A stretch of 64,000 nucleotides of DNA. Source: an uncultured Candidatus Saccharibacteria bacterium. Lineage in GTDB: Bacteria > Patescibacteriota > Minisyncoccia > Phycocordibacterales > GCA-2401445. The notes beneath the pieces were generated by a model that saw only the letters and a program-made list of their open reading frames with translations, was not told the DNA's origin and ran no database searches. Positions 6,034 to 33,434 of this stretch are shown one piece after another. The stretch covers positions 17,714 through 81,713 of the forward strand of contig CAYTAR010000005.1 of NCBI GenBank assembly GCA_964436015.1. Direction: 5' to 3'. The translations under genes and the position numbers were made by a program. Position 1 is the first letter of the stretch; each line of letters opens with the position of its first letter.

Positions 6034-6080
6034 AGATTTCCTTTCATTCAGGGTTTACTTAACTATAGCACAAGAATATT

Positions 6081-9000
6081 CTACTGTGTTGTAGTTCCCG
6101 AGTACCGGTAATAGAGAATAGGGATAAGAAGGAGTGTTAATACAGTTACAAAAGAAAGACCGAACATAATGGTATACGCGAGTGGTCCCCATATATCTGA
6201 GGCAAACAAGAGAGGTATTACACCAATTACGGTGGTGATAGTTGTAAGAAGGACGGGGCGTAGACGAGCGGTGCTTCCTGCAATAACTGCATCAAGAAGT
6301 TTTTCTTCAGGATGACTCCTACGCTCTCTATTGATTGAATCAATGAGGATAATAGCGTTATTCACTACAATTCCCGCAAGAGTAATGAATCCAAGAAGAG
6401 AAGGGAATGAGAGTGCGCGTCCGGTGATAGCAAGACCGCTCAACACTCCAATTGAGGTGAGTGGAACTATTGAGAGTATGAACGCGGTTTGTTTGAATGA
6501 GTTGAATTGGAGCACGAGAATTGAGAGCATAAGAATCAGTCCAAATATCAAAGCAAAGAACATATCAATGAAGGATTCTGTTTGTTCTTCATTTTCTCCA
6601 CCAACTCGTATCATTACTCCATCGGGAAGAGTCTGTTGTTCAATTTGTTCAAGGAATGTTGTATTGATTTCACGTAAGTTTGATCCAGCGGTAATATCCG
6701 CACTCAGTGTCGCTACGCGAAGTCGGTCCTCGTGTTGGATGCTGGTCGGACTTTTTTGAAGCTCAATCGTAACGAGCGATCCTAGGAGCACTGTATTGCC
6801 TGTTGGTGTTTTGATTGGTAATTCACGAAGTCTATCAATACTTACTTGTGTCAATTCATTGACTGTTCGGTAGTTTTGATTGAGATTTGCACGCACCACC
6901 ACATCGCTGTCAGTGTCGCCGGTACGGACGCTTGATACAATGGTACCGCTCACTGCTGTTCGTAGCGTTTCCGCGACGGCTAATGGAGATAATCCGACAG
7001 CGGTTACCCGGTCTCGACGAATGCGTAGCGCAAACTCAGTGCCATCGTTTTGAGTGCTTGTAACAACATCGGTAACTCCTGAAATATCTGAAAGCACCGC
7101 TGATGCGGTTTGAATTGCTGACTCTAAGTCTTGCGTGTTGTTTCCAGAGAAAGTAATTACAATAGGTTTTCCAGTTGGAGGTCCATTGCTTGCTTGCGAA
7201 ACACGTACGGTGACATTAGTGATATTTTTTAAATCGTTTCTAAGCAAATCAACTACTTCACTACTCGTTATGTCACGTTCCGGATACAAGTTGATGGTAA
7301 TATTTGCCAACTTGCTGTTGACACCACCTCCACCAACGAAATTACTTCCTTCGCCAACAGTGGTAATGAATGATTCAACGTACGGGTTGGTGTATAGCAC
7401 TTCTTCAACTGCGCGTGTAGCTAAATCTGTTTGCTCAAGTACGGTCCCCTCAGGTTTCTCAATGGTAATGAAAATAAAATCTTCGTTACTCTGAGGGAAG
7501 AATATCACGGTTACAATTCCGAATATTGGGAACGTAAGGGTAATAATGAATAGAATAATCAGAGTCGCAAAAAAAGAATTTTGTTTTTTGCGATTAGTAA
7601 GATATGTTGCAAGAACATTTTTATACGCATTCTGGAATTTATGTGTGTATGCTTCCTGCGCCACTTCAATACGTGAAGTGGTCCTTCTCCTAAGGAAGAG
7701 AGATGCGATAAGTGGAATAATTGCGAGTGCCACAAAGAGTGATGCGGTGAGAACGAAAATAATAGTGAAGGGAATACTCGCGATGAATTGACCAGTAATT
7801 CCAGATATAAAGAAGAGTGGGAAAAACACCGCCACGGTTGTCATTGTTCCTGAAATAAGTGGCCAAGAATACTCTTGAATTGTTTCAAGAGCGGATTGTT
7901 TTTTATCATTCCACTCTTTCAATTTTCCATGCATTGCTTCGGTTACTACAATTGCAGAGTCTACCAATATACCGACAGCGAGAATGAGGGAGAAGAGAGA
8001 GATGAAATTTATGGTATTTCCTGATGCTTCAAGTCCAATAAAAGAAAGTAGAAATGAGAGGGGAATAGCAAGCCCCGCAACAAGTGACTCTCTCCATCCG
8101 ATGGTGAGAAGCAGTAATCCGATTACCAGTAGTACGGTTTGCATACCGCTTGTGGTGAGGTTGCTCAAGTCTCTCCTGATGAACTCTGCTGAATTGAAAA
8201 AGATGAGTGCAGAGCTACCGTCAAGTGTAGTCGCGGTGAGTTCTTCTATTCTTTTTTCTACCGAATCAGCAACGTCAAGAACGCTCGTTCCTCGATTCTT
8301 AAAAATCGCGAAAAGTATTGCCTGTTCAGAGGGAGTATTCTCAATACTCAATCGAGCGAGTGTGCGCATTTTTGAAATATCGTCTGCAATGACCGCTATG
8401 TCTCGGAGAAAGACTACTCCACCACTTGGGGTTCTAAATGTAATACGTTCAAATTCTTCCGCGGTGTTAATATCCGCATCAAAACAAACGGTATAGGTTA
8501 TACCGTTTGTTTCAATGGTTCCGATTGGAATAGTGATGTCGTGTGAGCGGATGCCTGCGGTGATATCACCTAAGGTGAGGTTGAACTGTTGCAGTTTGTT
8601 AGTATCAACGATAACACTTATTTCTCGTGGCGCAGTACCGCTCACTGATACACGCGATACTCCCGGGAGCGACTGTAGATCGCTCTTGAGTTGGGTACCG
8701 ATGTCAGTTAACTCGATTCGTGACGCATCACTTGAAAGCGCAATATAGAGAATTGGCTGGTCAGCAAAGTTAACATCTGTTACTGAGGGGCTTTCTGCGT
8801 CTCGGGGAAGTGTATTCTTTATCTTCTCAACCTCATCTTTCAGTTTATTGATTGATTCATCTATGGGAGCGGTTGCGATATACTCAACCGTGATTGACGA
8901 TACACTCTCCCGCGATACTGAAGATATTTTTTTTACATTCTCAAGGTTTGCAAGCCCATCTTCAAGTGGATTTGTGATTAGTTTTTCCACATCTTCTGCG

Positions 9001-19144: not shown

Positions 19145-20656
19145 ATGAAAAAAACACGACAAGTCGCACTTATTATCCTTGATGGGTGGGGGTACCGAGA
19201 AGAGACGAAAGATAATGCGATACGGCAAGCGAATACTCCGGTCATGGATCGTCTGTGGAATGAATTCCCGCACGCACTCTTGATGGCAAGTGAGGAGCAT
19301 GTTGGACTGCCACAAGGTCAGGTGGGGAACAGTGAAATCGGGCACACCACTATTGGTGCAGGGACGGTCATTGATTCAGACTTGGTACGTATTACCAAAG
19401 CGGTTGAGACGAGATCGTTTGGTACAAACAAAACATTCTTAGATTTATTTGAGCACGTAAAAAGTCATGGTTCTGTTCTGCATGTCATGGGTCTTATTGG
19501 GCGAGGAGGGGTACATGCGCACAGCACACACTTGGAAGAATTTCTGCGTGTGGCTCACGCAAGTGGAGTTGGAGAGATTGCGGTGCATGCATTTACAGAT
19601 GGGAGAGATTCTTCACCTAATGAAGCGCACGAGCACATCAAGGAACTTGAACATATCTTGGCAGAGCTTGGTATAGGATACATCGCGTCGGTATCGGGAA
19701 GATTTTTTTCAATGGATAGGGATAACAATTGGGATCGTCTGCAAACATTTGAAAAAACCGCTTTGTTCTGTGAAGGAAATGTGTGTCATATTCCGCCGAC
19801 TGAGGAATTGAAGCGTCAGTACGGTGAAGGAAAAAGCGATGAACACATTGAACCATTTATTGTACGCAAAGCACCGTTAAAAAAACATGATGGAGTATTT
19901 ATTTTTAATTTCAGAGCCGATCGCGTGAGAATGCTCACGAAACGTCTCACTGACATCAAAGCAGAACTTGATTTGAAAATTGTGACTCTAACTGAATACC
20001 AGAAAGATTTTCAAGTGGACGTGGCATTTCCGGTAATGGGAATAAAAACCACACTTGCTGAACAGGTAAGTTTGAATGGTTTGACACAAGTGCACATTGC
20101 AGAGACAGAAAAGTTTCCACATGCTACGTACTTTTTAAATGGGGGACGAGAGGAACCGCACGTGGGAGAAGAACATGTGGTGCTTCCGAGTAGAAAGGAT
20201 GTGTTAACGCATGATTTAGCACCTGAGATGCAGGCAATGGGGATTGCTGATGTGGCAATACAGAAAATAGAGAGTGGAGCAGATTTCACTTTTATCAATT
20301 TTGCGAACCCTGATATGGTGGGGCACACCGCCAATGTACCAGCGATTATAACTGCCATAGAAACAACTGATCGTGAATTAGGAAGAGTGCTAGATGCGCT
20401 CCTTGCTCGTGGAGGAGTGGCGTTTGTAACGGCAGATCACGGAAATGCTGAGATAAACCGTGACCCGAAGACAGGAGAGAAGCATACTGCTCATACACTC
20501 TCGCCGGTCCCCGCGATTCTGACTGACAAAGGACTCACACTTCATGATGGGTCTCTCAAGGATATAGCTCCGACCGTGCTTGCGTTACTCAATCTTTCCA
20601 TTCCTTCTGCAATGACAGGCGCGTTGCTTTTTGCAGAAAATAAAACACACCAGTAG
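19145..20656 (+). CDS. gpmI: 2,3-bisphosphoglycerate-independent phosphoglycerate mutase
   Basis: ILDGWG N-terminal motif and the ADHGN motif. Confidence 0.9.
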   Translation: MKKTRQVALIILDGWGYREETKDNAIRQANTPVMDRLWNEFPHALLMASEEHVGLPQGQVGNSEIGHTTIGAGTVIDSDLVRITKAVETRSFGTNKTFLDLFEHVKSHGSVLHVMGLIGRGGVHAHSTHLEEFLRVAHASGVGEIAVHAFTDGRDSSPNEAHEHIKELEHILAELGIGYIASVSGRFFSMDRDNNWDRLQTFEKTALFCEGNVCHIPPTEELKRQYGEGKSDEHIEPFIVRKAPLKKHDGVFIFNFRADRVRMLTKRLTDIKAELDLKIVTLTEYQKDFQVDVAFPVMGIKTTLAEQVSLNGLTQVHIAETEKFPHATYFLNGGREEPHVGEEHVVLPSRKDVLTHDLAPEMQAMGIADVAIQKIESGADFTFINFANPDMVGHTANVPAIITAIETTDRELGRVLDALLARGGVAFVTADHGNAEINRDPKTGEKHTAHTLSPVPAILTDKGLTLHDGSLKDIAPTVLALLNLSIPSAMTGALLFAENKTHQ

Positions 20657-21137: not shown

Positions 21138-21269
21138 ATGGCACAAGAAAGAGTATTGCCAGCCGTTGCACTGGATGGCGTTTTTTACGGTTTCTTTTTA
21201 TTCAGCGTTTACTATTCTTGGAGAGATTGCAGTATATTCAGTAGAGGTATCGTTGGTTTAAAAAAATAA
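21138..21269 (+). CDS. candidate small hydrophobic peptide (43 aa)
   Basis: AAAGAGGA RBS 8 nt upstream of the ATG; a strong terminator immediately follows. Confidence 0.2.
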   Translation: MAQERVLPAVALDGVFYGFFLFSVYYSWRDCSIFSRGIVGLKK

Positions 21270-21296
21270 AAAAGCGCCTTCAGGGCGCTTTTTTGT
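21266..21296. terminator. bidirectional terminator
   Basis: AAGCGCCTT-c-AGGGCGCTT hairpin flanked by A-run and T-run. Confidence 0.6.
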
Positions 21297-21352
21297 TGTC
21301 TTTATAAACCTTTAGGTTATTCCAAGGGGACCCCTTGGAATGAGATAGTGAA

Positions 21353-22574: not shown

Positions 22575-22647
22575 TCCGCGGTAGCTCAGTTGGTAGAGCG
22601 TCTCGCTGTTAACGAGAGGGTCCTAGGTTCGAGCCCTAGCCGCGGAG
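22575..22647 (+). tRNA. tRNA-Asn (anticodon GTT)
   Basis: Hand-folded cloverleaf: acceptor TCCGCGG/CCGCGGA, D arm GCTC/GAGC, anticodon loop CTGTTAA, T arm CTAGG-TTCGAGC-CCTAG, discriminator G. Confidence 0.85.
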
Positions 22648-22907
22648 CCGTATAAAAAAATCACCTCTTATATTCTTGAGGTGATTTTTTTATACTTACT
22701 TACACGCGGCAGGGCTCGAACAGGAAAGGGGTCGGGAAAACAGTCGTTTTCCCGTGGAGTGAGAATGCATAGGTATGCATTCGCAAGACCGGAGGCAGAC
22801 GTGCCGAGGTGGGGTCGCAGGCTTTTTCAGCAGAAAAAGACCCGTGACAGGCAGTGAGTCTTCGAACGTTGGAAAACCGTAGGTTTCCAAGGAGTTCGAG
22901 CCCTAGC
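22645..22907 (+). repeat. 263-bp direct repeat copy 1 (att-like; starts at tRNA-Asn 3' end)
   Basis: About 99% identical to 29544..29806 (3 mismatches); begins GAGCC (tRNA 3' end) and ends GGAGTTCGAGCCCTAGC (tRNA T-arm-like core). Confidence 0.9.
22653..22694. terminator. bidirectional terminator just after tRNA-Asn (inside the repeat)
   Basis: AAAAAAATCACCTC-ttatattctt-GAGGTGATTTTTTT perfect 14-bp stem. Confidence 0.7.
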
Positions 22908-22965
22908 TTATATACGAGTACTTTGGATTTTAGAGTGTACTCACGAATAAAATCCTTAGTAACTC

Positions 22966-23034
22966 GTGACCGAGTCCTAGCCGCACACTACACCACAAAA
23001 TTCCAAAAATAATTGTACGTATCCCTGTTTTCTC
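22966..23034 (+). repeat. tRNA-Asn 3'-end-like fragment (F1) plus conserved AT-rich motif (M1)
   Basis: GTGACCGAGTCCTAGCCGCAC matches the tRNA 3' end at 15/16; followed by CAAAAATAATTGTACGTATCCCTGTTTTCTC; the unit recurs at 30020, 30727 and 31991. Confidence 0.7.
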
Positions 23035-23086
23035 TCAAACTCAGCATCTTGTGCTGCCACTGTATGTATATGTAAATCTATCTTTA

Positions 23087-24250
23087 TCATCGATTACCTT
23101 TTGCCCTGTTATGTGTCTTACACAACATCTGGCAATTTTTTGCGTCCGTTGCACCACCCTTACTCCACGCTGCCACATGGTCGGCATCCATGTCGCTTAG
23201 ACCCCAGATTTTCTCTTTGTTGGCATCATGCCCAATTGCACAAAGCGGACAGTTTGATTCGCCCTTTTTCTTTGCTGTGGCAGTTTGAGCTTCATACACT
23301 GAACGTTTGGTTGCATCATCAAACACACGTACATCAAGTAGTTTTGTATCAACTTCACCACCTAAGACGTACTCAAAGATTCCTTTGCGGTTCTTTACGT
23401 ATGCATCACCATAGAGCCGTTGCACTGCTGTGGCTACTTTCTTAGGATCATATTTTTTCTTGTGATAGGTTTCGTAAAGTCTATTCCATTCCAATCCTCT
23501 CATTTCACTCTCAACATCTGTGAATGTTTTGGATACCCAGTCAATGACTTTATCAAAGTGATTCTTTAGCTCCGTAATGTTCTTATCGTTACGATGCTTA
23601 CTCATGTAATTGTCTATGGCACCATCAGAAACCCAGTCTAAAGCTCGCTCCAAATATGCTTGGCGTTTGATGTCACCAGCAATATAGGCACTCCACTTCT
23701 GCACATTGGCGTTTTGACTGTTACTAAACTCTTCACGTGCCTTAGTAACAAAAGGACCCGAATAGACGGCGTTTAAAATCTCCTGCTCAGTTAGCGGCAC
23801 TCCAGCAATATTAATAGTCTTGAACCAATCCTTGATCTCTGGCTCGTCGCCCTCGCACACATACACCAACAATTTGGTGTTTAGTATCTGTTCACGCTGA
23901 CTGTCAGCCATACCGCTGTAGTACTGCTCATGGCCGTTCTTGTCTTTAACAGCAAACTTACCGGTAACAAATCGTCCAATACTGGTAATGCGCTGTTGGC
24001 CATCGAGGACCTCAAATTTGTCTTTTCCAACTTGGTTAAAATAAATCAAACCAATGGGGTATCCCTTCAAAATTGAGTCAATCACAGCAACATCCTTTTT
24101 GCCGTCAGCATAAATATAGTTACGTTGATATTCTGGTTGAATCGTTAGCTTGCCAGACAAACCAAACAAACCCTTTCCTTCCAACTCGTTATACACGAAG
24201 CCGTCGCAAACTTCTTCGATGGTGATGTCATTTTTTAGCGTTGTTTTCAT
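23087..24250 (-). CDS. DUF262 (ParB/GmrS-like) N-terminal domain + C-terminal HNH nuclease (GmrSD-like type IV restriction candidate)
   Basis: DGQQR motif of DUF262; C-terminal CPLC...[10 protein letters not shown]...[13 protein letters not shown] zinc-finger motif. Confidence 0.75.
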
Positions 24251-24252
24251 AA

Positions 24253-25440
24253 CTATTTTTTCTTGTGCTTGATTAAAACTCTCTGATAAACTTTTTCCAG
24301 TAAACCATTGACTTTCACGACTCCGCTAGCGTTAAGATCATAGATGCCTGTCTTGCCAAATTTATCTAGATACGCCTGTTTACATTCTGTAGATGTGTAA
24401 ACTTTGGTTTTTTGTTTATATAAATCCTCATTTTCACACATACCAACAATCTTAAATTGGTCAGGGTTATATTTATCTAGGAAACTAATTGGCACCCCCA
24501 TAACACCACCATAGTCACTAGGAATTGCTTTAGCGAACGGCACCTCAATGGCATCGTAATTTTCATATTTCAAATAGCTCGTTTCTTTCTTTTGTATCTG
24601 CTTATTAAATTTTTTATTTTCTGCCATGGTCATAAATTCAAGTGGTTGGTGACGACGACCATGATCAAGATTAGTAAACCAGCGAACACCCATCACACGC
24701 GCGTAGTGAACGCCATTTTTATCAGTCCGCCAATTGCCAATTTCCTTGAAAATATAATGCGGAACTACAAACTCTCTATCTCCACTACTTATACTTGGTC
24801 CAAGCCAGACCTTATTCTCTTTAATCATTGGAAAAACTTCTTTGTAAGTTATGGCATTCAAGTTACCAATGATTAGAAATTGTTTTTTGTATTCAAAAAG
24901 CTGAGTAATGTACTCACGGAATAAACTAAAGGGAGGATTAGTGACGACAATATCACTTTGCTTGAGAAGCTCCACGCATTCATCACTTCGAAAATCACCG
25001 TCTTCTTCGAGCGGTGCCCACTCGTTATTTTTATTAGCTTTAAGCTGCAAAGCAATGTCTTCAAGTGTGAATGAACCGTCGCCATCAACATCACCAACCT
25101 CGTTGATGATGAACTTGTTTGCGGTAATTTTTGGCCGCCCTTTAGCTGGTTCAAGAGTGACATCGTCACCAAACAGACCGATTTGAGTATTTGCAACCGG
25201 TGAAGGTTTGTAGCTAGTGGTAATGAGCCTCTTTAATCCTAGTCTATTAAAATTTAGAACGAAATATCGAAAGAAATTGCTTTCATATGGATCATCACAA
25301 TTGCTATAAATTACTTTACCCTTGAAAGTATCAGGGTCGTATTCAAGATAAGACTCGATTTCTTTTTGAATGTCCGAATACTGGGTATAAAACTCGTCAT
25401 TCTTTGTCCGCTTTGCGTTTGTAAGATTTTTGTTTGCCAT
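24253..25440 (-). CDS. gamma-class N6-adenine DNA methyltransferase
   Basis: N-terminal DEFYT (HsdM/IIG-like motif) and catalytic VVTNPPF (motif IV). Confidence 0.8.
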
Positions 25441-25445
25441 AACAT

Positions 25446-26435
25446 TTACAGAGTTTTTCTTCGTGTGAGGATCGGCTTAGCATCCAGTGAACCGATAAAG
25501 TAAAAACTATGGTTGAGATAGCTTGCCATTTCTTCTACTTCAGATAATGCATTGTATATAGCATTTCCCAATTCATACTCTTTTGTATTGCATTTGATTA
25601 TCTTGTCGCCAAAGATATCAGTGGCCTCATTCTTATCAATCACAAACCCATGATCCTTGTATTCATATACAAGACGCTCGGCAATATCTTTGGGCGTATT
25701 GGCAAGCTTGCTCGCTCGAGGACTGAGTAATCTTTCCGCATATTGCATTGCAGATTCCGCAACACGTTCGTAGTAACCCACCTGTACTGGTTCAACAGAA
25801 AGATTGAGATACTGCGCAAACATTGAGGCAGATGCGGGATATTTTTTTACAAGACTGGCAATGTGTTCAATTGAATTCTTTAGACCGAGAGCAGGTACCC
25901 TGCGTCCAGAGACTTCAGATTTCATCTGTGGATCAATTGGACCAAGCTCACTCATACTGCCCATATGTATCTCATCAGATGCACACGCTAGAAGAGTAGC
26001 TGCTGACTTAGCATAACGAGGCACAACGGTTACGAATTTCTTATTAGAAAACTCAGAACAAAGTTTCCCAATCAAATATGCTGATCCTGGCTCTCCACCA
26101 CCAGAGAGTAAGATGAGCAGAAGTGGTTTATCGTTGTTGAACTCTGTTATCGCTTCATAGATTTTGTCAGAGTCACCCTTAACCAAAATCGTATTATCGA
26201 ACAGGATTAGAGTATTGAAGTCTTCACCACAATCATGTTTATTAACTTCTTGTCTAAGAAATTTCTTTAAGAGAGCCGAGAACTCATCCTGTTTTGTTCG
26301 AGTCCCGTTTTTACCATAACCATCTACAAGAACGGTAAACAGGTCAACAAAAGATATTTCTTTCTTTTCTGAAGACTTTGGCTGACTGGCCTTAGTTGTC
26401 GTTGCTTTTTTAGGTGTTGGTTTCTTGTTTTTCAT
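25446..26435 (-). CDS. SDH/S49-family Clp-fold serine protease (SppA-like)
   Basis: LLSGGGEPGSAY and ACASDEIHMG blocks typical of the S49/SDH peptidase fold; Lys-rich N-terminus. Confidence 0.6.
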   Translation of the reverse strand: MKNKKPTPKKATTTKASQPKSSEKKEISFVDLFTVLVDGYGKNGTRTKQDEFSALLKKFLRQEVNKHDCGEDFNTLILFDNTILVKGDSDKIYEAITEFNNDKPLLLILLSGGGEPGSAYLIGKLCSEFSNKKFVTVVPRYAKSAATLLACASDEIHMGSMSELGPIDPQMKSEVSGRRVPALGLKNSIEHIASLVKKYPASASMFAQYLNLSVEPVQVGYYERVAESAMQYAERLLSPRASKLANTPKDIAERLVYEYKDHGFVIDKNEATDIFGDKIIKCNTKEYELGNAIYNALSEVEEMASYLNHSFYFIGSLDAKPILTRRKTL

Positions 26436-26437
26436 AC

Positions 26438-27133
26438 TTATTTCTCGTTATCGAGCATAACTTTCAACTGGAAGATTGTATCTGACTTCAGCTTTGCCCG
26501 TGCAGAGTCTTTCTGTGGATCGGACAACAACTCACCAAGACCATCCAAGATGTGCTTGTTATCCATCTTTTCCAGCATATCAATACATTTCTCCAGCGTT
26601 TCTTTGAAAGACATTCCTGAGCGCTGTTCCACTATTTCGCGATTTATTGACCAATTACTCTTAGCAAAGTAATTAACGTCAAACACGTCTCGGCTCGTCT
26701 TGCCGACACGTTCATACATCGCCATGAGTTTGTGGGCAAACATATCCTCCTGGACCATGACGAGCATTGAAATACCCAACAATGTCTTCATCTCGTATCG
26801 TGAGCCAAATTGTCTGCGATTGACCTCGACCTTTATGTTCTGAGCTTTCGGATCATAAGAGACGACATGGAGCAAGTTAAATCTCTTGATGCGAGAGTCG
26901 AGCACTTTGCCATACTCTTTGACAATAGTGCTGACCTTTTCAAACACCTCATCCTCCTTTGATTCGTCCAGCAAATCAAAGTCTAGGTCTACCGAATTAC
27001 GCGGCAAGTCATAGAACATAAGTGCCGCAGTACCACCTTTAAACCCGAGGCAGGGGGCAATGGAGGTATCAGAGTAGATATCTTTCAATATCTGCAACAG
27101 GATATTTTTATGTTTTGAATAGTCTAAGGTCAT
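26438..27133 (-). CDS. abiEii: AbiEii/AbiGii-family nucleotidyltransferase toxin (type IV TA)
   Basis: FKGGTAALMF...RNSVDLDFDL NTase motif; overlaps upstream abiEi stop by 4 nt. Confidence 0.8.
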   Translation of the reverse strand: MTLDYSKHKNILLQILKDIYSDTSIAPCLGFKGGTAALMFYDLPRNSVDLDFDLLDESKEDEVFEKVSTIVKEYGKVLDSRIKRFNLLHVVSYDPKAQNIKVEVNRRQFGSRYEMKTLLGISMLVMVQEDMFAHKLMAMYERVGKTSRDVFDVNYFAKSNWSINREIVEQRSGMSFKETLEKCIDMLEKMDNKHILDGLGELLSDPQKDSARAKLKSDTIFQLKVMLDNEK

Positions 27134-27732
27134 ACGGTTTTTTCTTTGTTATAGGCTTTGAAGTATTCTTTTACTTTCTTCTCCAATCGCTTGTTGTGAT
27201 AGATAGGCGCGATTTTAAAAACCTTATCCCAATCCAAACTAGCCAAGTTATCGAAATGATAGTCTTTGCTCACGTAGATACGATCCAAAAATGCACGTTC
27301 TTTTGTCGCGATCGAGTAGCCCGCTTTGCTTTCAATGCCAGCAGTATTACTCAAGACGTAATCTTTCATGCGGATAAAAGTGATCTTCTGGTCTCCAACT
27401 ATAATTTCGCGATTTACGTATGAGGCAACAAATATATTTCCGTAGTATTGGAAGCTAACCCCCTCACGAGTTAAAACAGTTTCAAAGCTTACATAGGAAG
27501 GCGTATAGATTCTGGTTGCTAACTCAAAGCGATCGTAGTTCTTGTCTTTTGCATACAAGCCACGACGTACTCGAATCAACTTTCCGGCCTTCACATATCG
27601 CTTTAATCGATCAGTGACAACAGAACTATCATCTTCATTCCACAACAAAGCAGCGTCTTTCGTAGAAAAGACTGTCTTGGAAGATCTTAACAAGACCTCT
27701 AAAAATTCTCCTTTTGTTGGTATTTTATCCAT
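27130..27732 (-). CDS. abiEi: AbiEi-family antitoxin/transcriptional regulator
   Basis: Position immediately upstream of and overlapping abiEii; N-terminal winged-helix-like region; internal ATG chosen. Confidence 0.65.
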   Translation of the reverse strand: MDKIPTKGEFLEVLLRSSKTVFSTKDAALLWNEDDSSVVTDRLKRYVKAGKLIRVRRGLYAKDKNYDRFELATRIYTPSYVSFETVLTREGVSFQYYGNIFVASYVNREIIVGDQKITFIRMKDYVLSNTAGIESKAGYSIATKERAFLDRIYVSKDYHFDNLASLDWDKVFKIAPIYHNKRLEKKVKEYFKAYNKEKTV

Positions 27733-27838
27733 TTTCAGTCTAGAAAGGGTATTTAAGTCCCTTTCCAGTAACAATATAGCATATTTTAGATAACTCAACA
27801 AATGGGGATAAGGGGAGAAATAAGCATATCTAGTACAT

Positions 27839-27902
27839 GTCTTATAATATTATAAGACATCATCATGTTGCTGTTTGTCTACTTATAATATTATAAGTAG
27901 AC
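27839..27902. promoter_or_regulatory. two perfect palindromic operators in the divergent abiEi / 27911 promoter region
   Basis: GTCTTATAATATTATAAGAC (20 bp, 27839-27858) and GTCTACTTATAATATTATAAGTAGAC (26 bp, 27877-27902) share the core CTTATAATATTATAAG. Confidence 0.6.
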
Positions 27903-27910
27903 TTTCAGCT

Positions 27911-28879
27911 ATGAAGAAATCTCCCCTAGAACAAGTCAAAGCAAAGCTTAATAAGTACTACTTGGCTGCTTTGACTGCGGAAGAGCTGCAGCTTTATTTT
28001 GACTCGCGACTTGAGAAGGTCTTGCGTGACAAGAAGATCGTAACCCTGCGAGAGCTTGGGTATCTGCTCTGTGAGACTGGTCCGGGTGATCGTCGCTTCG
28101 ATCCACGACACATTCCACTACTTATTCAGGACGGTCTTCTCTCTACTTCCCCGTATGGAAGTATCCCTGAAATTATTGAGCTTGGAGAGAAGAAAAAGAA
28201 AATTGATGAGTATCTCAGAGATAATCAGGATACAGAAGCTGCTAGAAAGCTGATTTTAAAAGTTCTCGCTACCTATGCCAGTGATCTGACAGTGGTCTCG
28301 AAAGATCTGTTTGTTGTGGACGGCATGTTCGGTAAGATTCCAGTTTCTTTTCTTGTTAAGAATGGACAGTGGATACTCCCTGATGAAGAGCTATTTTCCT
28401 TCTTGCAAGAAGCACAGCGTAAAAAACGGCTACCTGTAGTAGTAGCCAGAAAGATATCGGGTATCTTGTTTCCGATGTTCAAAGGTATTTCAGTTTTGGG
28501 ATTGAATCTTTACAAGACGTACCTACCAAAGAATGCCAAAGGACTGGTTGACGCGGCAGTCATTCCTGCCCAGGGTTTTATGAGAAAGTTGCGATACTCC
28601 GGTCAGTTTGAATACCTCACAAAGGACTATATAGAAGGGATTGAAGACGAATATTGGACCGGTGATCCACTCAAGAACTTTTTGGAAGTAATCATGCCCA
28701 GGCATGCAGAAGACTACTATCAGCGTTTTGTTGATCAGAAGATCACTACCGCAGATAACTTCGCTGATACCGTGTCGCAGTTCCGAAAAAACAAAGCCAC
28801 CAAAGGTCTTCTGAATACTTATGAAGCGCAGGAGAATTTGATTCAAGAACTCAGTAAAACAACTAAGAAAGGCTCATGA
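27911..28879 (+). CDS. hypothetical protein (322 aa), divergent from abiEi
   Basis: ATG at 27911 (the ORF track TTG start at 27875 lies inside the operator palindrome); no domain recognised. Confidence 0.5.
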   Translation: MKKSPLEQVKAKLNKYYLAALTAEELQLYFDSRLEKVLRDKKIVTLRELGYLLCETGPGDRRFDPRHIPLLIQDGLLSTSPYGSIPEIIELGEKKKKIDEYLRDNQDTEAARKLILKVLATYASDLTVVSKDLFVVDGMFGKIPVSFLVKNGQWILPDEELFSFLQEAQRKKRLPVVVARKISGILFPMFKGISVLGLNLYKTYLPKNAKGLVDAAVIPAQGFMRKLRYSGQFEYLTKDYIEGIEDEYWTGDPLKNFLEVIMPRHAEDYYQRFVDQKITTADNFADTVSQFRKNKATKGLLNTYEAQENLIQELSKTTKKGS

Positions 28880-29388
28880 AAACGAACGGATGGCACAAAA
28901 GAGTACTGCTGAAACATGCTAAAGAAATAACGACTAATGGGATGACCTATGCAGTCATTGCGCTTGTACTCTTACTCTGGCACTTTGCTCTTGATATGAA
29001 ATTTCAGTGGCAACAGATAGCACCTTTGTCAGAACCAAGTATCTTTGTCCGTGCATTTTACAGCGCATTCACGTTTGGAACATTAGGCCTATTACTGTAT
29101 GTACTCCGCTTTTACAAAGTCTTGCACGACATCATGGTTAAAGCTTTCGGTATGTGGGAACTCTATAACCTGATCAAAGCGGTGATCTGGCTGGGCTTAA
29201 TGTATGTCTCTTATGCCTATCTCGTACCATGGCTATTTAAGTTTTTGAATACTGGAGCGTCTGTTCTTTTCAACATTGCCAACCTGGTGCTATATATCGC
29301 ACCTCCTATAGGTATTGCTTTGATCGTAAGCATTATTTATCTGATCCTCAAAAATAAATTCGCATTGAGACATCGTGCCCCGAAATAA
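28876..29388 (+). CDS. 4-TM membrane protein, translationally coupled to the upstream hypothetical
   Basis: ATGA overlap; four hydrophobic helices; no domain recognised. Confidence 0.5.
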   Translation: MKTNGWHKRVLLKHAKEITTNGMTYAVIALVLLLWHFALDMKFQWQQIAPLSEPSIFVRAFYSAFTFGTLGLLLYVLRFYKVLHDIMVKAFGMWELYNLIKAVIWLGLMYVSYAYLVPWLFKFLNTGASVLFNIANLVLYIAPPIGIALIVSIIYLILKNKFALRHRAPK

Positions 29389-29543
29389 CACACGGACTCA
29401 TTGTAGTTGCTTAGTATTCAAACACCTCGTGCCTATTGCATGTACTTCGGGAGGATCGGCGTGATACCGGCACGTTCCAATGCTTCGCTGGAACGTCGCC
29501 AGAAGTCCGCTTCAATAGCGGTTCTAATGCGTCGCATTCCGTC

Positions 29544-29806
29544 GAGCCGTATAAAAAAATCACCTCTTATATTCTTGAGGTGATTTTTTTATACTTACTT
29601 ACACGCGGCAGGGCTCGAACAGGAAAGGGGTCGGGAAAACAGTCGTTTTCCCGTGGAGTGAGAATGCATAGGTATGCATTCGCAAGACCGGAGGCAGACG
29701 TGCCGAGGTGGGGTCGCAGGCTTTTTCAGCAGAAAAAGACCTGTGATAGGCAGTGAGTCTTCGAGCGTTGGAAAACCGTAGGTTTCCAAGGAGTTCGAGC
29801 CCTAGC
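29544..29806 (+). repeat. 263-bp direct repeat copy 2
   Basis: Identical to 22645..22907 apart from 3 mismatches; includes the same terminator hairpin (29552-29593). Confidence 0.9.
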
Positions 29807-30019
29807 ATTTATGTGTATTCGAAAGACGGAGCGTACGAAGTCGCCTTCTTAGGCGTGCGCGAGTCGGGTGAGAAGCGAACACTTGGAGCTTTGCAAGACC
29901 TTTTGAGCTGTTTTGTGAGTGAAGCGAAATAAAAGAGTCAAAAGGTGTACAGAATCTGTAAGATTCGCGAACACTTAGTCCGCACAGTGTGCAAAGCACA
30001 TGAGCAGACTTAGTGATTT

Positions 30020-30088
30020 GTGACCGAGTCCTAGCCGCACGCTATACCACATAACTTCAAAAATAATTGTACTTATCCCTGTTTTCTC
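30020..30088 (+). repeat. tRNA-Asn 3'-end-like fragment (F2) + motif M2
   Basis: GTGACCGAGTCCTAGCCGCAC then CAAAAATAATTGTACTTATCCCTGTTTTCTC. Confidence 0.7.
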
Positions 30089-30181
30089 CAAGGTATTTTT
30101 CTGTTGCCTGAGATGGGAGTCAAATTATTGACTTTTAATTAGTAAGAGGTAATCTTGATTCAGAAAGTTTAAAACATTTTT

Positions 30182-30514
30182 ATGAACAAGACACCTATTC
30201 CCTGCCGCTGTGGAAGAAATCCAGAGGTGAACACTAACCTACGTGGATATCGACACTCTATTTCATGTAAATGCGGGACAAGTGAAATAAACTTCATCAC
30301 GTGGTCCGACAACGAACAGAAACTACAGGACAACTGGGAATCCCTTATCAGGGGTACACCCTACAAACATAGCGTCCAACACCTGCCAAATCCAGAAGCT
30401 GAGATGCAGGTATATGTGGCGACAATTGGTAGTGAGAATTACGATACTAACCCACTTCGCCGATACATTCGGGCAACTGGAGGCCACTGCTCAGGCGGCG
30501 GTGGTCCTTGCTAA
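30182..30514 (+). CDS. hypothetical zinc-ribbon protein (CxC...CxC)
   Basis: PCRCG...SCKCG pairs of cysteines; a terminator-like hairpin follows (about 30529-30570). Confidence 0.35.
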   Translation: MNKTPIPCRCGRNPEVNTNLRGYRHSISCKCGTSEINFITWSDNEQKLQDNWESLIRGTPYKHSVQHLPNPEAEMQVYVATIGSENYDTNPLRRYIRATGGHCSGGGGPC

Positions 30515-30726
30515 AAACATCAACAAAATCACGAACCCGCACAAGCAAAAGCTACGGCGGGTTTTTCTTTTATACGCCTCCGAACTTACCCAACCTTTCA
30601 ATACTCAATTTAACCAAAGGATATATCCTAAACAGTTCGGTGAATATGTAATTTGGGAAGCATAAAACACAAAGTCCTCGTGAGAAGCAGGGGATTTTTT
30701 GTGTCCTTTCGGCTAGGACTAAAAGA

Positions 30727-30788
30727 CGAAGCCCTAGTCGCACACTACACCACAAAATTTCAAAAATAATTGTACTTATCCTTATTCT
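30727..30788 (+). repeat. tRNA-Asn 3'-end-like fragment (F3) + degenerate motif M3
   Basis: GAAGCCCTAGTCGCAC then CACCACAAAATTTCAAAAATAATTGTACTTATCC. Confidence 0.6.
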
Positions 30789-30895
30789 TCTATGATTTGA
30801 CAAATACTACAATTAATGCTCTACTTAGACTTAGAAGCAATGACCGGATAAGTGTCCGAAAACAGGCTTATACTTGAACCTACAATAAAAGGACT

Positions 30896-31303
30896 ATGTC
30901 GAGCACAATGGCAGACGCGCTAAGTAAAGTTGGACTGATTACTGAGCAGGAAAAATACCGGTTACTCGCAGACCAGGCCCACTCAATCGCTGAACGTGAA
31001 GCGCTGTGGAAGAAAACTGCGAGTATGGGGAATCAAACGGAGCACCTTGCTCTTGTTCAGAATTGCTCAGCAATTAGTGAGTTCAAGGATTCCGCGAGAA
31101 AACTTCTCTGCGAATATCCCGAGTTGGCAGGTGATGTTGTAAAGGCTTCACAACGATTCAAAGAACAAAAAGGTGGAGACAAGTTGGTATGTCTGTGCGG
31201 CCAGGTAGAAACCCTGTTACGGCAAATTCAACCAACGAAACGCGAGCGCTTTCTCAAACGAGCGTTCCGTTGCGCAGATAGCACTGTTCCCATTCACTAC
31301 TAA
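30896..31303 (+). CDS. hypothetical protein (135 aa)
   Basis: ORF with its own terminator; no domain recognised. Confidence 0.45.
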   Translation: MSSTMADALSKVGLITEQEKYRLLADQAHSIAEREALWKKTASMGNQTEHLALVQNCSAISEFKDSARKLLCEYPELAGDVVKASQRFKEQKGGDKLVCLCGQVETLLRQIQPTKRERFLKRAFRCADSTVPIHY

Positions 31304-31347
31304 ACGATAACCCTTAATGAGAAAGGCACTCATATGTCTGCTTAATT

Positions 31348-31376
31348 AACCCACACATTGGTGTGGGTTTTTTTAT
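31348..31376 (+). terminator. rho-independent terminator
   Basis: AACCCACAC-attg-GTGTGGGTT hairpin followed by TTTTTTATTT. Confidence 0.65.
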
Positions 31377-31406
31377 TTATTTCCCCTCGCACCAAAGGCT
31401 CAAAAG

Positions 31407-31427
31407 ACGAAGCTCTAGCCGCGAAAC
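31407..31427 (+). repeat. tRNA-Asn 3'-end-like fragment (F4)
   Basis: GACGAAGCTCTAGCCGCGAAAC; the CTAGCCGCG stretch matches the tRNA acceptor 3' strand; followed by TTGACT-17-TATCAT promoter-like boxes. Confidence 0.55.
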
Positions 31428-31525
31428 ATTGCTTGACTTTTAATATATAATGTGTTATCATATAAAAAGTAATTCCAACCGTATGGTTAGGTGGTTCCGA
31501 AAGGAATAACAAGGTAATTGTATCC

Positions 31526-31846
31526 TTGAAAAATACATCAAAAACAGATAAGAGAATGGAGTTAATTATGGCCAGAACATTAAGAGTAGTAAGTTGTCCC
31601 GACCGCCTAAAACTGGCGTTTTGTCTCCTTGAAGGGGACAATAAAAATCAGGCCCCAGTACAGTTCATGGTTAAGGAGAACGATGGCGAAAATCAATGGG
31701 CAGAGTATGTAAATCTTGACAGCATAGGAAGGGAAGACGGGAGTGGAGGTAATTTCAACCTAACTGGATGGAATACCGCAAACAAAGCTCGCGTCAGGAT
31801 TTTCCTTTCACTTAAACACCGCTCTGGCGTGATGACTTTCGAGTAG
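31526..31846 (+). CDS. hypothetical protein (106 aa; alternative start at 31556)
   Basis: ORF with its own promoter-like boxes and terminator; no domain recognised. Confidence 0.4.
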   Translation: MKNTSKTDKRMELIMARTLRVVSCPDRLKLAFCLLEGDNKNQAPVQFMVKENDGENQWAEYVNLDSIGREDGSGGNFNLTGWNTANKARVRIFLSLKHRSGVMTFE

Positions 31847-31860
31847 TACTCTAATCAAAT

Positions 31861-31894
31861 CCACTGCGCAGAAACCTGTCGCAGTGGTTTTTTA
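31861..31894 (+). terminator. rho-independent terminator
   Basis: CCACTGCG-cagaaacctgt-CGCAGTGG hairpin followed by TTTTTTATTT. Confidence 0.65.
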
Positions 31895-31990
31895 TTTGTA
31901 TAAACTTAGATTGCTTAATTTTTAATAATTTACCTTTAGTTTGTAGTGCTGAGCGTGTTTAGTATAGAGAATTGTGTATGGATAGAATAT

Positions 31991-32054
31991 GAAAAATAAT
32001 TGTACTTACCCCTGTTTTCTTCTTATCCCTGTTTTCTTATCCCTGTTTTCTCTC
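31991..32054 (+). repeat. motif M4 with a triplicated TATCCCTGTTTTCT unit
   Basis: GAAAAATAATTGTACTTACCCCTGTTTTCTTCTTATCCCTGTTTTCTTATCCCTGTTTTCTCTC. Confidence 0.7.
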
Positions 32055-32093
32055 GGAAGTGAAAGAAGTCACTATTTCTGCTAAAATAGCCTC

Positions 32094-32681
32094 ATGGGAC
32101 CTCAAAAAGATTGGTCTGACTATTACAAAGCAACACAATCAAAACCGCCTAGGCCACTCTTGGTTAAGGCACTTGAGTATGTAAACAATAAAGTTAAGGC
32201 TATTGATATTGGTGGGGGTGCGCTCAACGACACAAAATATCTCCTTGATCAGGGGTTTGAAGTAACAGTAATTGATAAAAGCCCGCTGGTGGAACAAGAG
32301 GCTAAAAAAATACCAAACAATAAGCTACAGGCAATCACTACTTCGTTTGAAGATTTTAGTTTTTCAAATGAGGAGTATGATCTTGCTTCAGCAATGTTTG
32401 CACTTCCATTTACATCACCAACTCATTTCAATGAAGTGCTTGAAAAGATAAAAAGGTCACTCAAGAAGGGTGGGATATTTTGCGGTCAATTCTTTGGAGA
32501 TCGTGATGAATGGAATATAAATCCTAAGATGACTTTCCATACTAAAGCAGAAGTCGAAAATCTTCTCAAGGACCTCGAGGTTATTTCTTTTAAGGAAGAT
32601 GAGAAAGAAGACAAGACTGCCACTGGTGGCATGAAGCATTGGCACATCTTTCATATAATTGCTCGCAAAAAACGAGGTTAA
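32094..32681 (+). CDS. class I SAM-dependent methyltransferase (TehB-like)
   Basis: AIDIGGGALNDTKYLLDQGFEVTVIDKSP motif I/II; 195 aa. Confidence 0.7.
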   Translation: MGPQKDWSDYYKATQSKPPRPLLVKALEYVNNKVKAIDIGGGALNDTKYLLDQGFEVTVIDKSPLVEQEAKKIPNNKLQAITTSFEDFSFSNEEYDLASAMFALPFTSPTHFNEVLEKIKRSLKKGGIFCGQFFGDRDEWNINPKMTFHTKAEVENLLKDLEVISFKEDEKEDKTATGGMKHWHIFHIIARKKRG

Positions 32682-32708
32682 ATCTCGTTCTGTATAACTA
32701 GTTATTTT

Positions 32709-33251
32709 ATGAAAACATTAAATAAGTATAATATCGGAAAAATTGCAGAAAGAATTGTTATGAATGAATTAGAATCTCGGGGCTACAGAGCAACAGATTT
32801 AAACAAAGATGGCCTCAGTGCAAACTCAGATATTTTAGCTGCTAAAGGTGGAAAAACTTGGCAGATTCAAGTAAAAGGGTCTACTAATAAAATTACAGAT
32901 AGATGGTGGGTTCAGTATGGATATTGTAATGAGAAAATTATAAACAAAGAATCCAGTGTATTTAATAGCAAAGATTCTTTTTATTTTGCTGACTATGTTG
33001 CTCTTGTTGCTATAAAATCACCATCTGATTATCGTATATTTATTATGCCTTCAAGAATAGCGGAAAGGGCAGCACAATTAAATTTGGATAGATATTATAG
33101 AAGACCTAGGGTTAGAGATGGGGGTGTTAGACAGCCTGGTAAAATTTGGGTTGCAGTTGAGAGAAGTAAATTAGAAAGACAAAATGATCCTTCGTTAGAT
33201 AAAGAACGAAGTATATTACAAAAAAGTGAAGATCAATGGGAATTAAAATAA
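32709..33251 (+). CDS. PD-(D/E)xK fold protein resembling Holliday-junction resolvase Hjc (QxK variant)
   Basis: SDILAAKGGKTWQIQVKGS matches the Hjc core D..K..hhIEVK with Q in place of E; the gene is very AT-rich. Confidence 0.45.
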   Translation: MKTLNKYNIGKIAERIVMNELESRGYRATDLNKDGLSANSDILAAKGGKTWQIQVKGSTNKITDRWWVQYGYCNEKIINKESSVFNSKDSFYFADYVALVAIKSPSDYRIFIMPSRIAERAAQLNLDRYYRRPRVRDGGVRQPGKIWVAVERSKLERQNDPSLDKERSILQKSEDQWELK

Positions 33252-33434
33252 TTTTTTATAATTTATCCTATCAAAATTTTAATATTAAAACCAAGTAGTT
33301 AGATGTTAATCATTAGAGCCACAAAATTTACACTTAAAACCCCAAGACTAAAGTCTCAGGGTTTTAAGTTTATAATCACTCGGCCACGGGGCGAGTGAGA
33401 TATGCCTCGTACAAAAAATGACACCATGAGTAAT

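Follow-up and report, generated by a model that had tools for sequence, protein, structure and literature searches.

Structured units with arms copied from the adjacent tRNA gene frame a defence island at tRNA-Asn in a Candidatus Saccharibacteria genome

Integrative mobile elements exploiting Xer (IMEX), such as those of the CTXphi type, have no recombinase of their own and use the host Xer proteins at dif through a folded single-strand attP composed of inverted half-sites. In both CTXphi attP(+) and the integron attC site, a single strand folds to rebuild a duplex copy of the target. Cis-mobilisable elements (CIMEs), which are flanked by att sites and lack recombination genes, are known at the sites of integrative and conjugative elements (ICEs) in Streptococcus. 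For tRNA genes, Williams reportedly described in 2002 the T loop as one sublocation used by tyrosine integrases. Patescibacteria (the candidate phyla radiation, CPR) have genomes of about 1 Mb and few recognised mobile elements, and to our knowledge the route by which they acquire defence genes is largely unknown. Tycheposons carry their own site-specific integrase (a lineage-specific tyrosine integrase, rarely a serine one), facing inward at one end, and hallmark primase, helicase, polymerase and excisionase genes; they are flanked by full and partial tRNA genes and form tandem arrays (10.1101/2020.12.28.424599). According to the Islander description (PMC4383910), an island is defined by a tyrosine integrase, and its endpoints are marked by the regenerated tRNA gene and the displaced fragment. 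Group I introns have been reported in Patescibacteria tRNA genes, including tRNA-Asn and tRNA-Asp, where they split the anticodon loop at 35/36 and cause annotation to miss the tRNA (10.1101/2025.07.03.662931). In the present study, we analysed a stretch of 64,000 nucleotides (the window) from an uncultured Candidatus Saccharibacteria bacterium (GenBank assembly GCA_964436015.1, contig CAYTAR010000005.1, positions 17,714 to 81,713), in which a defence island follows a tRNA-Asn gene and contains repeated pieces of the tRNA 3' end. We found that these repeated ends are arms of small structured elements, here called R units, which lie immediately 3' of tRNA genes.

The island resembles tycheposons and Islander-type islands in that the tRNA target is kept intact and a displaced, co-oriented 3' end lies on the far side of the insert. 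As in tycheposons, a full tRNA is accompanied by partial copies in tandem, accretion is targeted to a tRNA gene, and a streamlined genome carries defence or niche cargo. Unlike tycheposons, the island lacks its own integrase and the hallmark mobility and replication genes, and it contains only restriction-modification (R-M), protease, AbiE, nuclease-like, methyltransferase and small unknown proteins. The repeat is also of another kind, a conserved structured element of 100-270 nt that includes an inverted tRNA arm and is usually without cargo. A first-pass annotation of the window, made from the letters alone, had described a tRNA-linked variable region without a recombinase, and this part of it stood. 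The island is real and foreign and lacks a recombinase gene: it holds horizontally acquired defence genes and co-oriented tRNA-Asn 3' ends, and Pfam, PHROGs, PADLOC and NCBIfam revealed no tyrosine or serine recombinase domain in any of its open reading frames (ORFs) across 22.6-33.3 kb. None was found in the other scanned ORFs of the window, a set of at least 237 aa each (mostly 237-430 aa) that did not include several larger ORFs. A sharp change in gene composition had been described; the base composition shifts mildly (GC 0.40-0.41 in the island and 0.43 in the flanks). The reading of the repeated ends as integration scars was not supported as stated, as detailed below. A classical tRNA-integrated island was rejected, since the integrase is absent; fragments of the displaced type exist, but the largest repeat (264 bp, described below) begins only within the final 10 nt of the tRNA gene, and the right edge of the main cargo matches the tRNA end at only 8 of 10 positions. 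A phage-inducible chromosomal island (PICI) or other phage satellite was rejected as well: PHROGs and Pfam revealed no integrase, repressor, replication or packaging-redirection gene, and the only phage-like match was the ClpP/SDH protease.

A full R unit runs in the order H1 hairpin, X', a multi-hairpin interior of 80-170 nt, and X. X' repeats, in inverted orientation, the T loop, T stem and acceptor 3' strand of the neighbouring tRNA; X is a direct copy of the same tRNA from C56 of the T loop; and the interior core reads GAGSYGGGGTCGC-hairpin-GTGACC. At tRNA-Asn, whose 3' part from the T loop (GTTCGAGCCCTAGCCGCGGAG) is the source of the copied arm sequence, two units are stacked, R-Asn and then a shorter core2 unit whose X is the piece called F (coordinates in Table 1). 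After H1, the next 200 nt of R-Asn fold as a closed multi-branch structure whose closing stem is formed by X' (ACGCGGCAGGGCTCGAAC) on X (GTTCGAGCCCTAGC). The fold reached -112.5 kcal/mol over 266 nt, with z = -9.2 against shuffles. Rfam 15 contained no match to R-Asn, even at E <= 10 on the isolated segment (22640-23040).

The segment that trails tRNA-Asn had been noted to recur downstream, and this was confirmed as a 264-bp unit at 22650-22913 and 29549-29812 with an identity of 98.1-98.5% (98.1% by BLAST). It lies within a direct repeat of 274 nt (22640-22913 and 29539-29812, 97% identical) that opens with 10 nt of tRNA 3' end, reading CCGCGGAGCC in copy 1 and CCGTCGAGCC in copy 2. Only three interior differences separate the two R-Asn copies across 22696-22907. 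The degenerate tRNA-Asn 3' ends listed by the first-pass annotation are likewise genuine. With up to two mismatches, the 13-mer GAGCCCTAGCCGC was found at 22631 (tRNA-Asn itself), 22972, 30026, 30729 and 31410, always on the + strand, and these five occurrences are far above chance (0.38 expected; none of 100 shuffles reached five). Two further sets had been overlooked, namely the exact 14-mers GTTCGAGCCCTAGC at 22894 and 29793, which are the 3' ends of the 264-bp unit, and the inverted copies of the tRNA-Asn end at 22705-22722 and 29604-29621.

The complete arrangement of tRNA, H1, R-Asn, core2, F and M forms a platform of 0.4-0.55 kb, and two copies of it enclose the 6.5-kb defence cluster that we call cargo A. 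M is a 30-bp motif, AAAAATAATTGTACTTATCCCTGTTTTCT, which had been placed beside every degenerate tRNA copy; it follows three of the four (22966, 30020 and 30727) and is absent at 31407. The segment termed U80 comprises the 3' half of a shorter R-type hairpin (…CTTAGTRAYTYGTGACC; compare locus L027), F (CGAGTCCTAGCCGC) and the M motif. In the first platform, F lies at 22971-22984 and is a tRNA-Asn copy from C56; in the second, the core2 hairpin TCGCGAACACTTAGT...ACTTAGTGATTTGTGACC is followed by an identical F (CGAGTCCTAGCCGC) at 30025-30038. The two copies agree unevenly, with 98.1-98.5% identity in R-Asn and 89% in U80, and their spacers measure 41 and 196 nt. The second platform alone contains a segment of about 150 nt, sp2, of which sp2a is 97% identical over 40 nt to locus L024 and sp2b recurs in the units of L030 and L046. 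To the right of the second platform lie three single-gene segments, each bounded at one end by an F piece, and F+M units recur before or after such segments. F(3) and F(4) lack hairpins and are closer to each other than to the tRNA. The small gene with a private terminator that had been assigned to each degenerate copy is present at 30020, 30727 and 31407; the copy at 22966 faces the convergent cargo A.

The window contains another R unit, behind tRNA-Glu. Read on the - strand, R-Glu consists of H1, GGTGACCCTA (the complement of the acceptor 3' strand and discriminator), a hairpin, and CGGGGAATCGAA (complementary to T loop and T stem), so that its X' is split by a hairpin. The interior contains GAGGCGGGGTCGC-hairpin-GCGTTACC, and X is CGATTCCCCGTAGGGTCAC, the tRNA-Glu 3' end from C56. 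Beyond X, we observed a core2-like hairpin ending in GTGAC and then a terminator. Directly past this terminator lies a low-complexity, pyrimidine-rich tract (60350-60700) with repeated TCTAATCTCT / TCTCTTCTCTCT and no ORF.

A covariance model of the core was built from four instances and searched against 1.2 Mb of Patescibacteria loci (comparison loci are given by L numbers). It matched behind tRNA-Val (L041, L030), tRNA-Leu and tRNA-Ile (L005), and tRNA-Glu (L027), and a match in L024 lies in front of tRNA-Ile in an rRNA operon. In an alignment of 11 instances, which was itself fitted to the model, the core helix was 94.9% paired, and 7 of its 15 pairs showed compensatory change. The covariation score was reached by none of 500 shuffles, and slid controls were 42-50% paired. 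A G.U pair was kept in 10 of the 11 instances, indicating that the core structure is specific to the tRNA-sense strand.

We also performed a test that is independent of the model, in which 51 tRNA genes from 80 loci and the window were examined for exact copies of at least 11 nt of the last 24 nt of the tRNA within 700 nt. Direct copies on the same strand were present downstream of 9 of the 51 genes and upstream of 1, and inverted copies downstream of 7 and upstream of 0. The family is found at about 18% (about one in six) of the sampled tRNA genes. The order tRNA-H1-X'-interior-X was observed in the Asn, Glu, Leu, Gly, Ile, Arg(TCG), Arg(CCT) and Trp cases, and the minimum-energy fold closed X' on X in every one of them. 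C56 is the first position of the direct copy, which often follows immediately on the constant GTGACC, as at the junctions GTGACC/AAATCTCTCCGTGCCCACC (L005), GTTACC/GATTCCCCGTAGGGTCAC (tRNA-Glu of the window) and GTGACC/GAGTCCTAGCCGC (U80-1 and U80-2). The direct repeat of L074 runs beyond the tRNA and takes in a copy of H1. The interiors of R-Asn and of the L061 unit (tRNA-Arg) are homologous along their length, and R-Glu is homologous to the units behind tRNA-Glu(TTC) in L030 and L046. In the R-Glu type, both X' and X track a local T-stem difference between two genomes. These results demonstrated that the repeats of the window are members or fragments of a phylum-wide family of structured, tRNA-flanking units whose arms copy the adjacent tRNA.

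R units are gained and lost at orthologous sites. One such site lies between tRNA-Val and a glmU-like gene. It is empty in L057, where a single nucleotide separates the tRNA from the ATG, and L053 shows a terminator and nothing else. A 97-nt unit is present in L041 and a decayed one in L030, and the unit of L027 is of a different type, with its own X' and X. The tRNA-Glu(TTC) sites carry differing unit types or none. This presence and absence from site to site indicated that the R family is dynamic and not a fixed trailer.

Two arrangements related in form were observed elsewhere. In L024 (1-1600), the rRNA operon of another Patescibacteria metagenome-assembled genome (MAG), the 16S gene carries an insertion of 86 nt that is not in the Rfam model. 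An R-type unit there opens with the first 10 nt of tRNA-Ile, and the tRNA-Ile stands at the tip of a long stem formed from antisense sp2a and sp2b, followed by a second tRNA-Ile 3' half from the anticodon stem. A separate family of units of about 200 nt was found in soil contigs (L085, L086, L090, L094, L096, L097, L098 and L099). These are bounded by inverted, complete tRNA 3' ends including CCA (GTTCGAGCCCTACTGTCTCCACCA), and their interior is unrelated to the R-Asn repeat; L098 carries two copies in tandem (814-1233), and ARAGORN detected no tRNA gene in the loci of this type. Inverted tRNA 3' halves around about 100 nt were also seen in L083 and L095. In concept, the design of the soil units matches that of R units, in what is probably another phylum.

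We tentatively favour the view, which we hold to be a reasonable possibility short of probable, that R units are attachment modules for the tRNA T loop that lack an integrase and are served in trans. An R unit would enter the tRNA gene at T-loop position 55/56 and would supply its own positions 56-76 and a terminator-like hairpin, so that the tRNA would stay intact, and the old tRNA 3' end would be displaced to the far side of the unit as X. The recombinase would be encoded elsewhere and act in trans. X-H1-X' could fold on one strand as a hairpin and thereby restore a double-stranded copy of the target, which would explain the inverted arm, the strand-specific structure and the absent integrase together. 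Insertion at 55/56 has the geometry of tyrosine integrases of the T-loop type and is consistent with the start at C56, with the presence/absence data and with the extended repeat of L074, since a repeat running into H1 is expected if the incoming DNA carries 56-76 and H1. Cargo A could have entered by recombination at or within the platform, most simply as a circle carrying H1-R-core2-U80, and its entry would have given rise to the direct repeat of 264 bp. On its right side, cargo A has the junction CCGTCGAGCC/GTATAAAAAAA, exactly at the point where the last 10 nt of the tRNA would meet H1. Put more broadly, R units might be an unrecognised class of recombinase-less, tRNA-gene-targeting elements of 100-270 nt with arms written from the target. 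Such elements would use either folded-single-strand integration into the GTTC T loop via a trans recombinase or their own RNA in target choice, and would serve as docking platforms for defence islands; we regard this broader proposal as rather doubtful.

Attachment modules of this kind would have several relatives in logic. Like IMEX and attC sites, R units bring no recombinase, place inverted half-sites (X-H1-X') around a spacer and have a structure on one strand; unlike IMEX and integrons, the target is the tRNA T loop and not dif or attI, and an involvement of Xer or IntI here would be purely by analogy. The tandem short single-gene segments recall integron arrays of the CALIN type (clusters of attC sites lacking an integrase), in which cassettes also occur without an integrase. 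Unlike integron cassettes, the segments carry their own promoters and terminators, and the F and M pieces showed by inspection no clear palindrome of the attC type and no GTTRRRY core, with IntI absent from the island. CIMEs offer a parallel in their integrase-less segments with att-like flanks, in tandem at a site of tRNA type, and in the logic of mobilisation and accretion in trans. They differ in that no related ICE or integrase-bearing partner is in view here, and R units are far smaller and have conserved folded interiors. A miniature inverted-repeat transposable element (MITE) was rejected, as the inverted arms vary by locus to match the local tRNA and no insertion sequence (IS) or transposase was seen.

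Several results weigh against attachment modules served in trans. No recombinase could be linked to R units in a search confined to ORFs of the window, and the compensatory changes and the kept G.U pair are explained equally well by an RNA role. One interior family for at least seven tRNA identities needs a recombinase that reads the universal GTTC or many specialised ones. The conserved hairpin that splits X' in R-Glu is not expected from simple copying, the X arm of R-Asn ends after the T stem (22907), short of the tRNA end, and the difference between the U80 copies (89%) and the R copies (98.5%) is not predicted by a single clean integration. Cargo also moves without the repeats: the loci that hold a relative of cargo A (L100-L102) contain no tRNA, R unit or U80, and homologues of gene2, one of the single-gene segments, have no F, M or R pieces nearby, so that the repeats are missing from the edges of both. 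Finally, the IMG/VR viral contigs contained no R-core beyond 36 pattern matches attributed to chance, all of which were of high GC, without a nearby tRNA and with poor covariance-model scores. The viral contigs also gave no match to a closing-stem pattern for the repeat (19 matches in metagenome contigs, none homologous) and none to a 26-nt pattern of the M motif.

The competing explanation that survives best, possible although we consider it unlikely, is that R units are 3'-trailer RNAs made together with the tRNA and are not recombination sites. The X'/X helix would mimic the acceptor and T stems of the cognate tRNA as a continuous "minihelix" in which the interior replaces the T loop, and RNase P, RNase Z or the CCA-adding enzyme could release and cap a stable RNA of about 200 nt. 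Alternatively, X' might toggle between the tRNA and X and thereby control tRNA maturation; the island would then have arisen by ordinary homologous or illegitimate recombination, with the units serving only as homology. Such a role suits the compensatory changes and the strand-specific G.U pair on the tRNA-sense strand, and also the differences between the R-Asn copies, which keep or improve pairing (one C>T gives A-U, another C>T gives G.U, and an A>G is unpaired). In L041, L005 and L027, no more than 1-2 nt separate the tRNA from the start of H1, or H1 takes in the final bases of the tRNA, and the GC content of the units is 0.49, compared with 0.43 genome-wide. In R-Glu, the hairpin that splits X' sits where the D and anticodon arms would be, and the arms track the T-stem difference; the right junction of cargo A would be a microhomology of 8 of 10 positions to the tRNA end. 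A trailer RNA leaves other observations unaccounted for. The closing stem could have any sequence, and for it to match the neighbouring tRNA at no fewer than eight independent loci, either a generating mechanism or some unknown function is required. Orthologous sites differ by gain and loss of units, the L074 repeat into H1 looks like a duplication at the DNA level, the strong H1 hairpin at tRNA-Asn and tRNA-Glu might stop transcription ahead of the unit, and Rfam has no such family.

Like known tRNA mimics (the tRNA-like domain of tmRNA, bacterial Y RNAs and viral tRNA-like structures; PMC4201824 for the Y RNAs), R units have ends whose pairing gives an acceptor/T-stem helix with a discriminator end. 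Unlike these mimics, the T loop is replaced by a large insertion, the arms copy the adjacent tRNA, no Rfam model matches, and the units are so far known from sequence. tmRNA, RNase P RNA, SRP RNA, 6S RNA and the lysine riboswitch were rejected as identities of the R unit for want of an Rfam match. Retron msr/msd, omega/reRNA, bridge RNA and group I/II introns were likewise unmatched in Rfam, and no reverse transcriptase (RT), TnpB, IscB or IS110 is adjacent. The group I introns of Patescibacteria tRNA genes share with R units the phylum, an association with tRNA genes including tRNA-Asn, and structured RNAs of about 200 nt (10.1101/2025.07.03.662931). A group I intron was rejected for R-Asn, as tRNA-Asn is intact with the unit behind it and the Rfam group I model had no match at E <= 10 in 22640-23040. 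Neither the attachment-module model nor the RNA model covers everything, notably the existence of arms for at least seven tRNA identities.

Two histories confined to known processes are less likely than either of these. The first-pass annotation had proposed that integrase-bearing islands or satellites integrated serially into tRNA-Asn, in the manner of tycheposons or PICIs, and later lost their integrases and backbone, so that the tRNA ends would be the classic scars of a fossil array. We judge this improbable. The ends are indeed co-oriented and increasingly degenerate outward, the content is foreign and rich in defence genes, a relative of the AbiE-p322 module of cargo A lies near a large serine recombinase in L147, and tandem integration of tycheposons pushes older remnants outward (10.1101/2020.12.28.424599). 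Against these points, at least four of the six fragments (22894, 22971, 29793 and 30025) are built-in 3' arms of R units, which follow many Patescibacteria tRNA genes and mostly lack cargo, as does the tRNA-Glu unit of the same window. The island has no integrase, integrase fragment, replication gene or packaging gene; the 264-bp repeat far exceeds the usual att core and is itself a conserved element; and the segments between F pieces are single genes of 0.6-0.7 kb with their own promoters. The edges of the cargo A relative carry no tRNA fragment or repeats, the gene2 homologues are likewise unflanked, and a far (>700 nt) direct copy of the 3' end was found at none of the other 50 sampled tRNA loci. 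A purely local history, in which the tRNA-Asn trailer was duplicated and foreign DNA then arrived by transformation and illegitimate recombination, leaving F and M as diverged duplicates without a role, is very improbable: it agrees with the closer similarity of the F pairs 22966/30020 and 30727/31407 to each other than to the tRNA, with the uneven identities and spacers of the platforms, and with mosaic cargo modules in several unrelated contexts, but it leaves unexplained both the same architecture with arms matched to other tRNAs in many genomes and a cargo edge exactly at the tRNA-end/H1 boundary.

The family that frames the island is more interesting than the island itself and may represent an element or RNA of a new kind. 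The defence cluster shares 88-89% DNA identity between two contexts that are otherwise unrelated, and here it lies inside a duplicated platform of structured elements that copy tRNA. As attachment modules with a recombinase acting in trans, R units would provide a new route of island assembly and a compact tRNA-targeting site that is possibly programmable; as RNAs, they would form a new class of trailer RNA that mimics tRNA. Under both views, a partial tRNA 3' end near a Patescibacteria tRNA gene should not automatically be taken for the scar of an integrase-bearing island. A targeted, itself incomplete literature search revealed no account of units that trail tRNA genes and have inverted and direct arms matching their target, which is weak evidence.

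Table 1. Positions of the R units, related pieces and island genes in the window
Feature	Position	Strand	Description
tRNA-Asn(GTT)	22575-22649	+	ARAGORN call; Rfam tRNA, 69 bits
H1(1)	22650-22695	+	Perfect 18-bp A/T-rich hairpin right after tRNA-Asn; terminator-like; opens the 264-bp repeat
X'(1)	22705-22722	+	ACGCGGCAGGGCTCGAAC, complement of GTTCGAGCCCT-GCCGCG; inverted tRNA-Asn 3' end
R-Asn interior(1)	22723-22893	+	About five hairpins; family core GAGGTGGGGTCGC-hairpin-CGTGAC at 22806-22849
X(1)	22894-22907	+	GTTCGAGCCCTAGC, exact direct copy of tRNA positions ~53-66; pairs with X', closing the unit
core2(1) and F(1)	22914-22984	+	Second, shorter unit; hairpin ACGAGTACTT...CTTAGTAACTCGTGACC, then directly F(1)
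M(1)	23005-23034	+	30-bp motif AAAAATAATTGTACGTATCCCTGTTTTCTC
Cargo A	23079-29548	mostly -	Mosaic defence cluster; ends in CCGTCGAGCC (29539-29548)
DUF262/GmrSD-HNH type II restriction endonuclease (REase)	23087-24250	-	PADLOC "REase_II", 2e-85
EcoRI-like methyltransferase (MTase)	24253-25440	-	
SDH/ClpP-like protease	25446-26435	-	
AbiEii	26438-27133	-	
AbiEi	27130-27801	-	
p322	27911-28879	+	Nuclease-like core
p170	28876-29388	+	Membrane protein
H1(2), X'(2), R-Asn interior(2) and X(2)	29549-29806	+	Second copy of the 264-bp unit
sp2, core2(2) and F(2)	29807-30038	+	sp2a 29868-29907 and sp2b 29939-29967 are further R-type fragments
M(2)	30059-30088	+	30-bp motif
gene1	30182-30514	+	110 aa, Cys-rich, no family match; own terminator ~30667-30703
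U80-3	30712-30791	+	F(3) GACGAAGCCCTAGTCGC 30725-30741 and M(3) 30762-30791; no preceding R-core hairpin
gene2	30896-31303	+	135 aa, no known family; conserved stand-alone small Parcubacteria gene; terminator 31348-31369
F(4)	31402-31424	+	AAAAGACGAAGCTCTAGCCGCGA, without an M motif; a promoter-like site (31433-31461) and gene3 come next
gene3	31568-31846	+	Promoter-like site 31433-31461 ahead
M(4)	31992-32051	+	Three tandem TTATCCCTGTTTTCT units, no tRNA-like piece
S-adenosylmethionine (SAM) methyltransferase	32094-32681	+	AT-rich pair with p180
p180	32709-33251	+	180 aa; most AT-rich part of the island, GC 0.33
Bidirectional terminator	33329-33372		Likely right edge of the island by composition; no repeat there
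R-Glu unit	60744-61092	-	Behind tRNA-Glu(CTC) 61093-61166 (-); no cargo; found by BLAST of the spacer after copy 2

The cargo is a mosaic of mobile modules that also move without R units. A p170 relative with 91% identity led to loci L100-L102 (from GCA_002376945.1, an ENA assembly and a Tara Oceans run), in which the order is xseA, HerA, SIR2, REase, MTase, AbiEii, AbiEi, p324 and p170. At the DNA level, the identity of cargo A to these loci is 88% in the REase gene, about 75% in the MTase gene and 89% over 26426-29555, and the protease gene is missing from their cluster. The left edge of the homology is the REase stop codon, and the right edge falls exactly at …CCGTCGAGCC, which indicated that this decamer, identical to the tRNA-Asn end at 8 of 10 positions, is part of the cargo. 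In the window, CCGTCGAGCC abuts H1 exactly where the tRNA end abuts H1. A hidden tRNA at the right end of cargo A was rejected, as Rfam gave nothing at E <= 10 and the fold reached a z of only -1.7. The AbiE-p322 module recurs at about 75% identity in L146, beside a type I R-M methylase, and in L147, with different neighbours. L147 (Logan contig SRR32573207) encodes at 5777-7483 (-) a large serine recombinase of 568 aa (Resolvase, Recombinase and Zn_ribbon_recom domains), two genes from AbiE-p322, and this is the only recombinase seen near any cargo relative.

The p322 family comprises more than 100 uncharacterised Patescibacteria proteins of about 310 aa. No Pfam, NCBIfam or PADLOC model and no PDB sequence matched p322. 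Its AlphaFold model (mean predicted local distance difference test score, pLDDT, 92.9) had no structural match in the PDB below E = 0.01 and no global match; confident matches of the central beta domain were only local, to nuclease cores of the PD-(D/E)xK or EndA type. A hidden recombinase was therefore rejected for p322, given the lack of a family match and a model that fits only nuclease-type cores, locally. p322 adjoins AbiEi/AbiEii in four of four contexts (the window, L100-L102, L146 and L147), and a small membrane protein follows in three; p322 and this membrane protein may be a new defence pair. Between the divergent abiEi and p322 genes (27841-27897) lie two exact CTTATAATATTATAAG palindromes 41 bp apart, which are exactly conserved in L100, L146 and L147 and probably form an AbiEi operator.

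At 90% identity, all island proteins but one were singletons, and exact look-ups of the flanking proteins found no syntenic close relative on record. The phosphoglycerate mutase of the left flank (iPGM, 19145-20656) matched only Patescibacteria MAGs at up to 64% identity, the next relative of the NAD-binding protein beside tRNA-Asn is from Candidatus Paceibacterota (53%), and the homologues of gene2 and p322 are named Parcubacteria, Patescibacteria or Niyogibacteria; by these proteins the window belongs to the Patescibacteria, of the Paceibacteria/Parcubacteria kind. The N-terminal half of p180 appeared by eye to be of the PD-(D/E)xK or Hjc type, with a weak match to the PHROG "Holliday junction resolvase" (E = 0.007).

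Other identities were considered for the small pieces. The M motif as a transposon end of the Tn7/Mu type (TGTAC and three tandem sites) was rejected because the window contains no convincing inverted partner; among matches with up to three mismatches, one is on the - strand (6113-6127, two mismatches), which is within chance. DnaA boxes and a replication origin were rejected, since the motif is unlike TTATCCACA and gene strand accounts for the change in skew. The HIP1 sequence GCGATCGC occurs once in 64 kb, in keeping with a source outside the cyanobacteria. At 21175-21297, a weak Phe_leader-like match in Rfam (27.8 bits, E = 0.4, gathering score 55) is probably due to chance. A cassette bounded by U80 was rejected for gene2 elsewhere, as its homologues (53-74% identical) stand alone without repeats, in unrelated contexts and with the same 5' leader. 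This leader (30800-30895 in the window; 9930-10000 in L140) has the order AAGCAATG..hairpin..GAAAACARGCTTA..TTGAACCT and is kept across Parcubacteria genomes with completely different neighbours; it might act as a cis-regulatory RNA of this conserved small protein.

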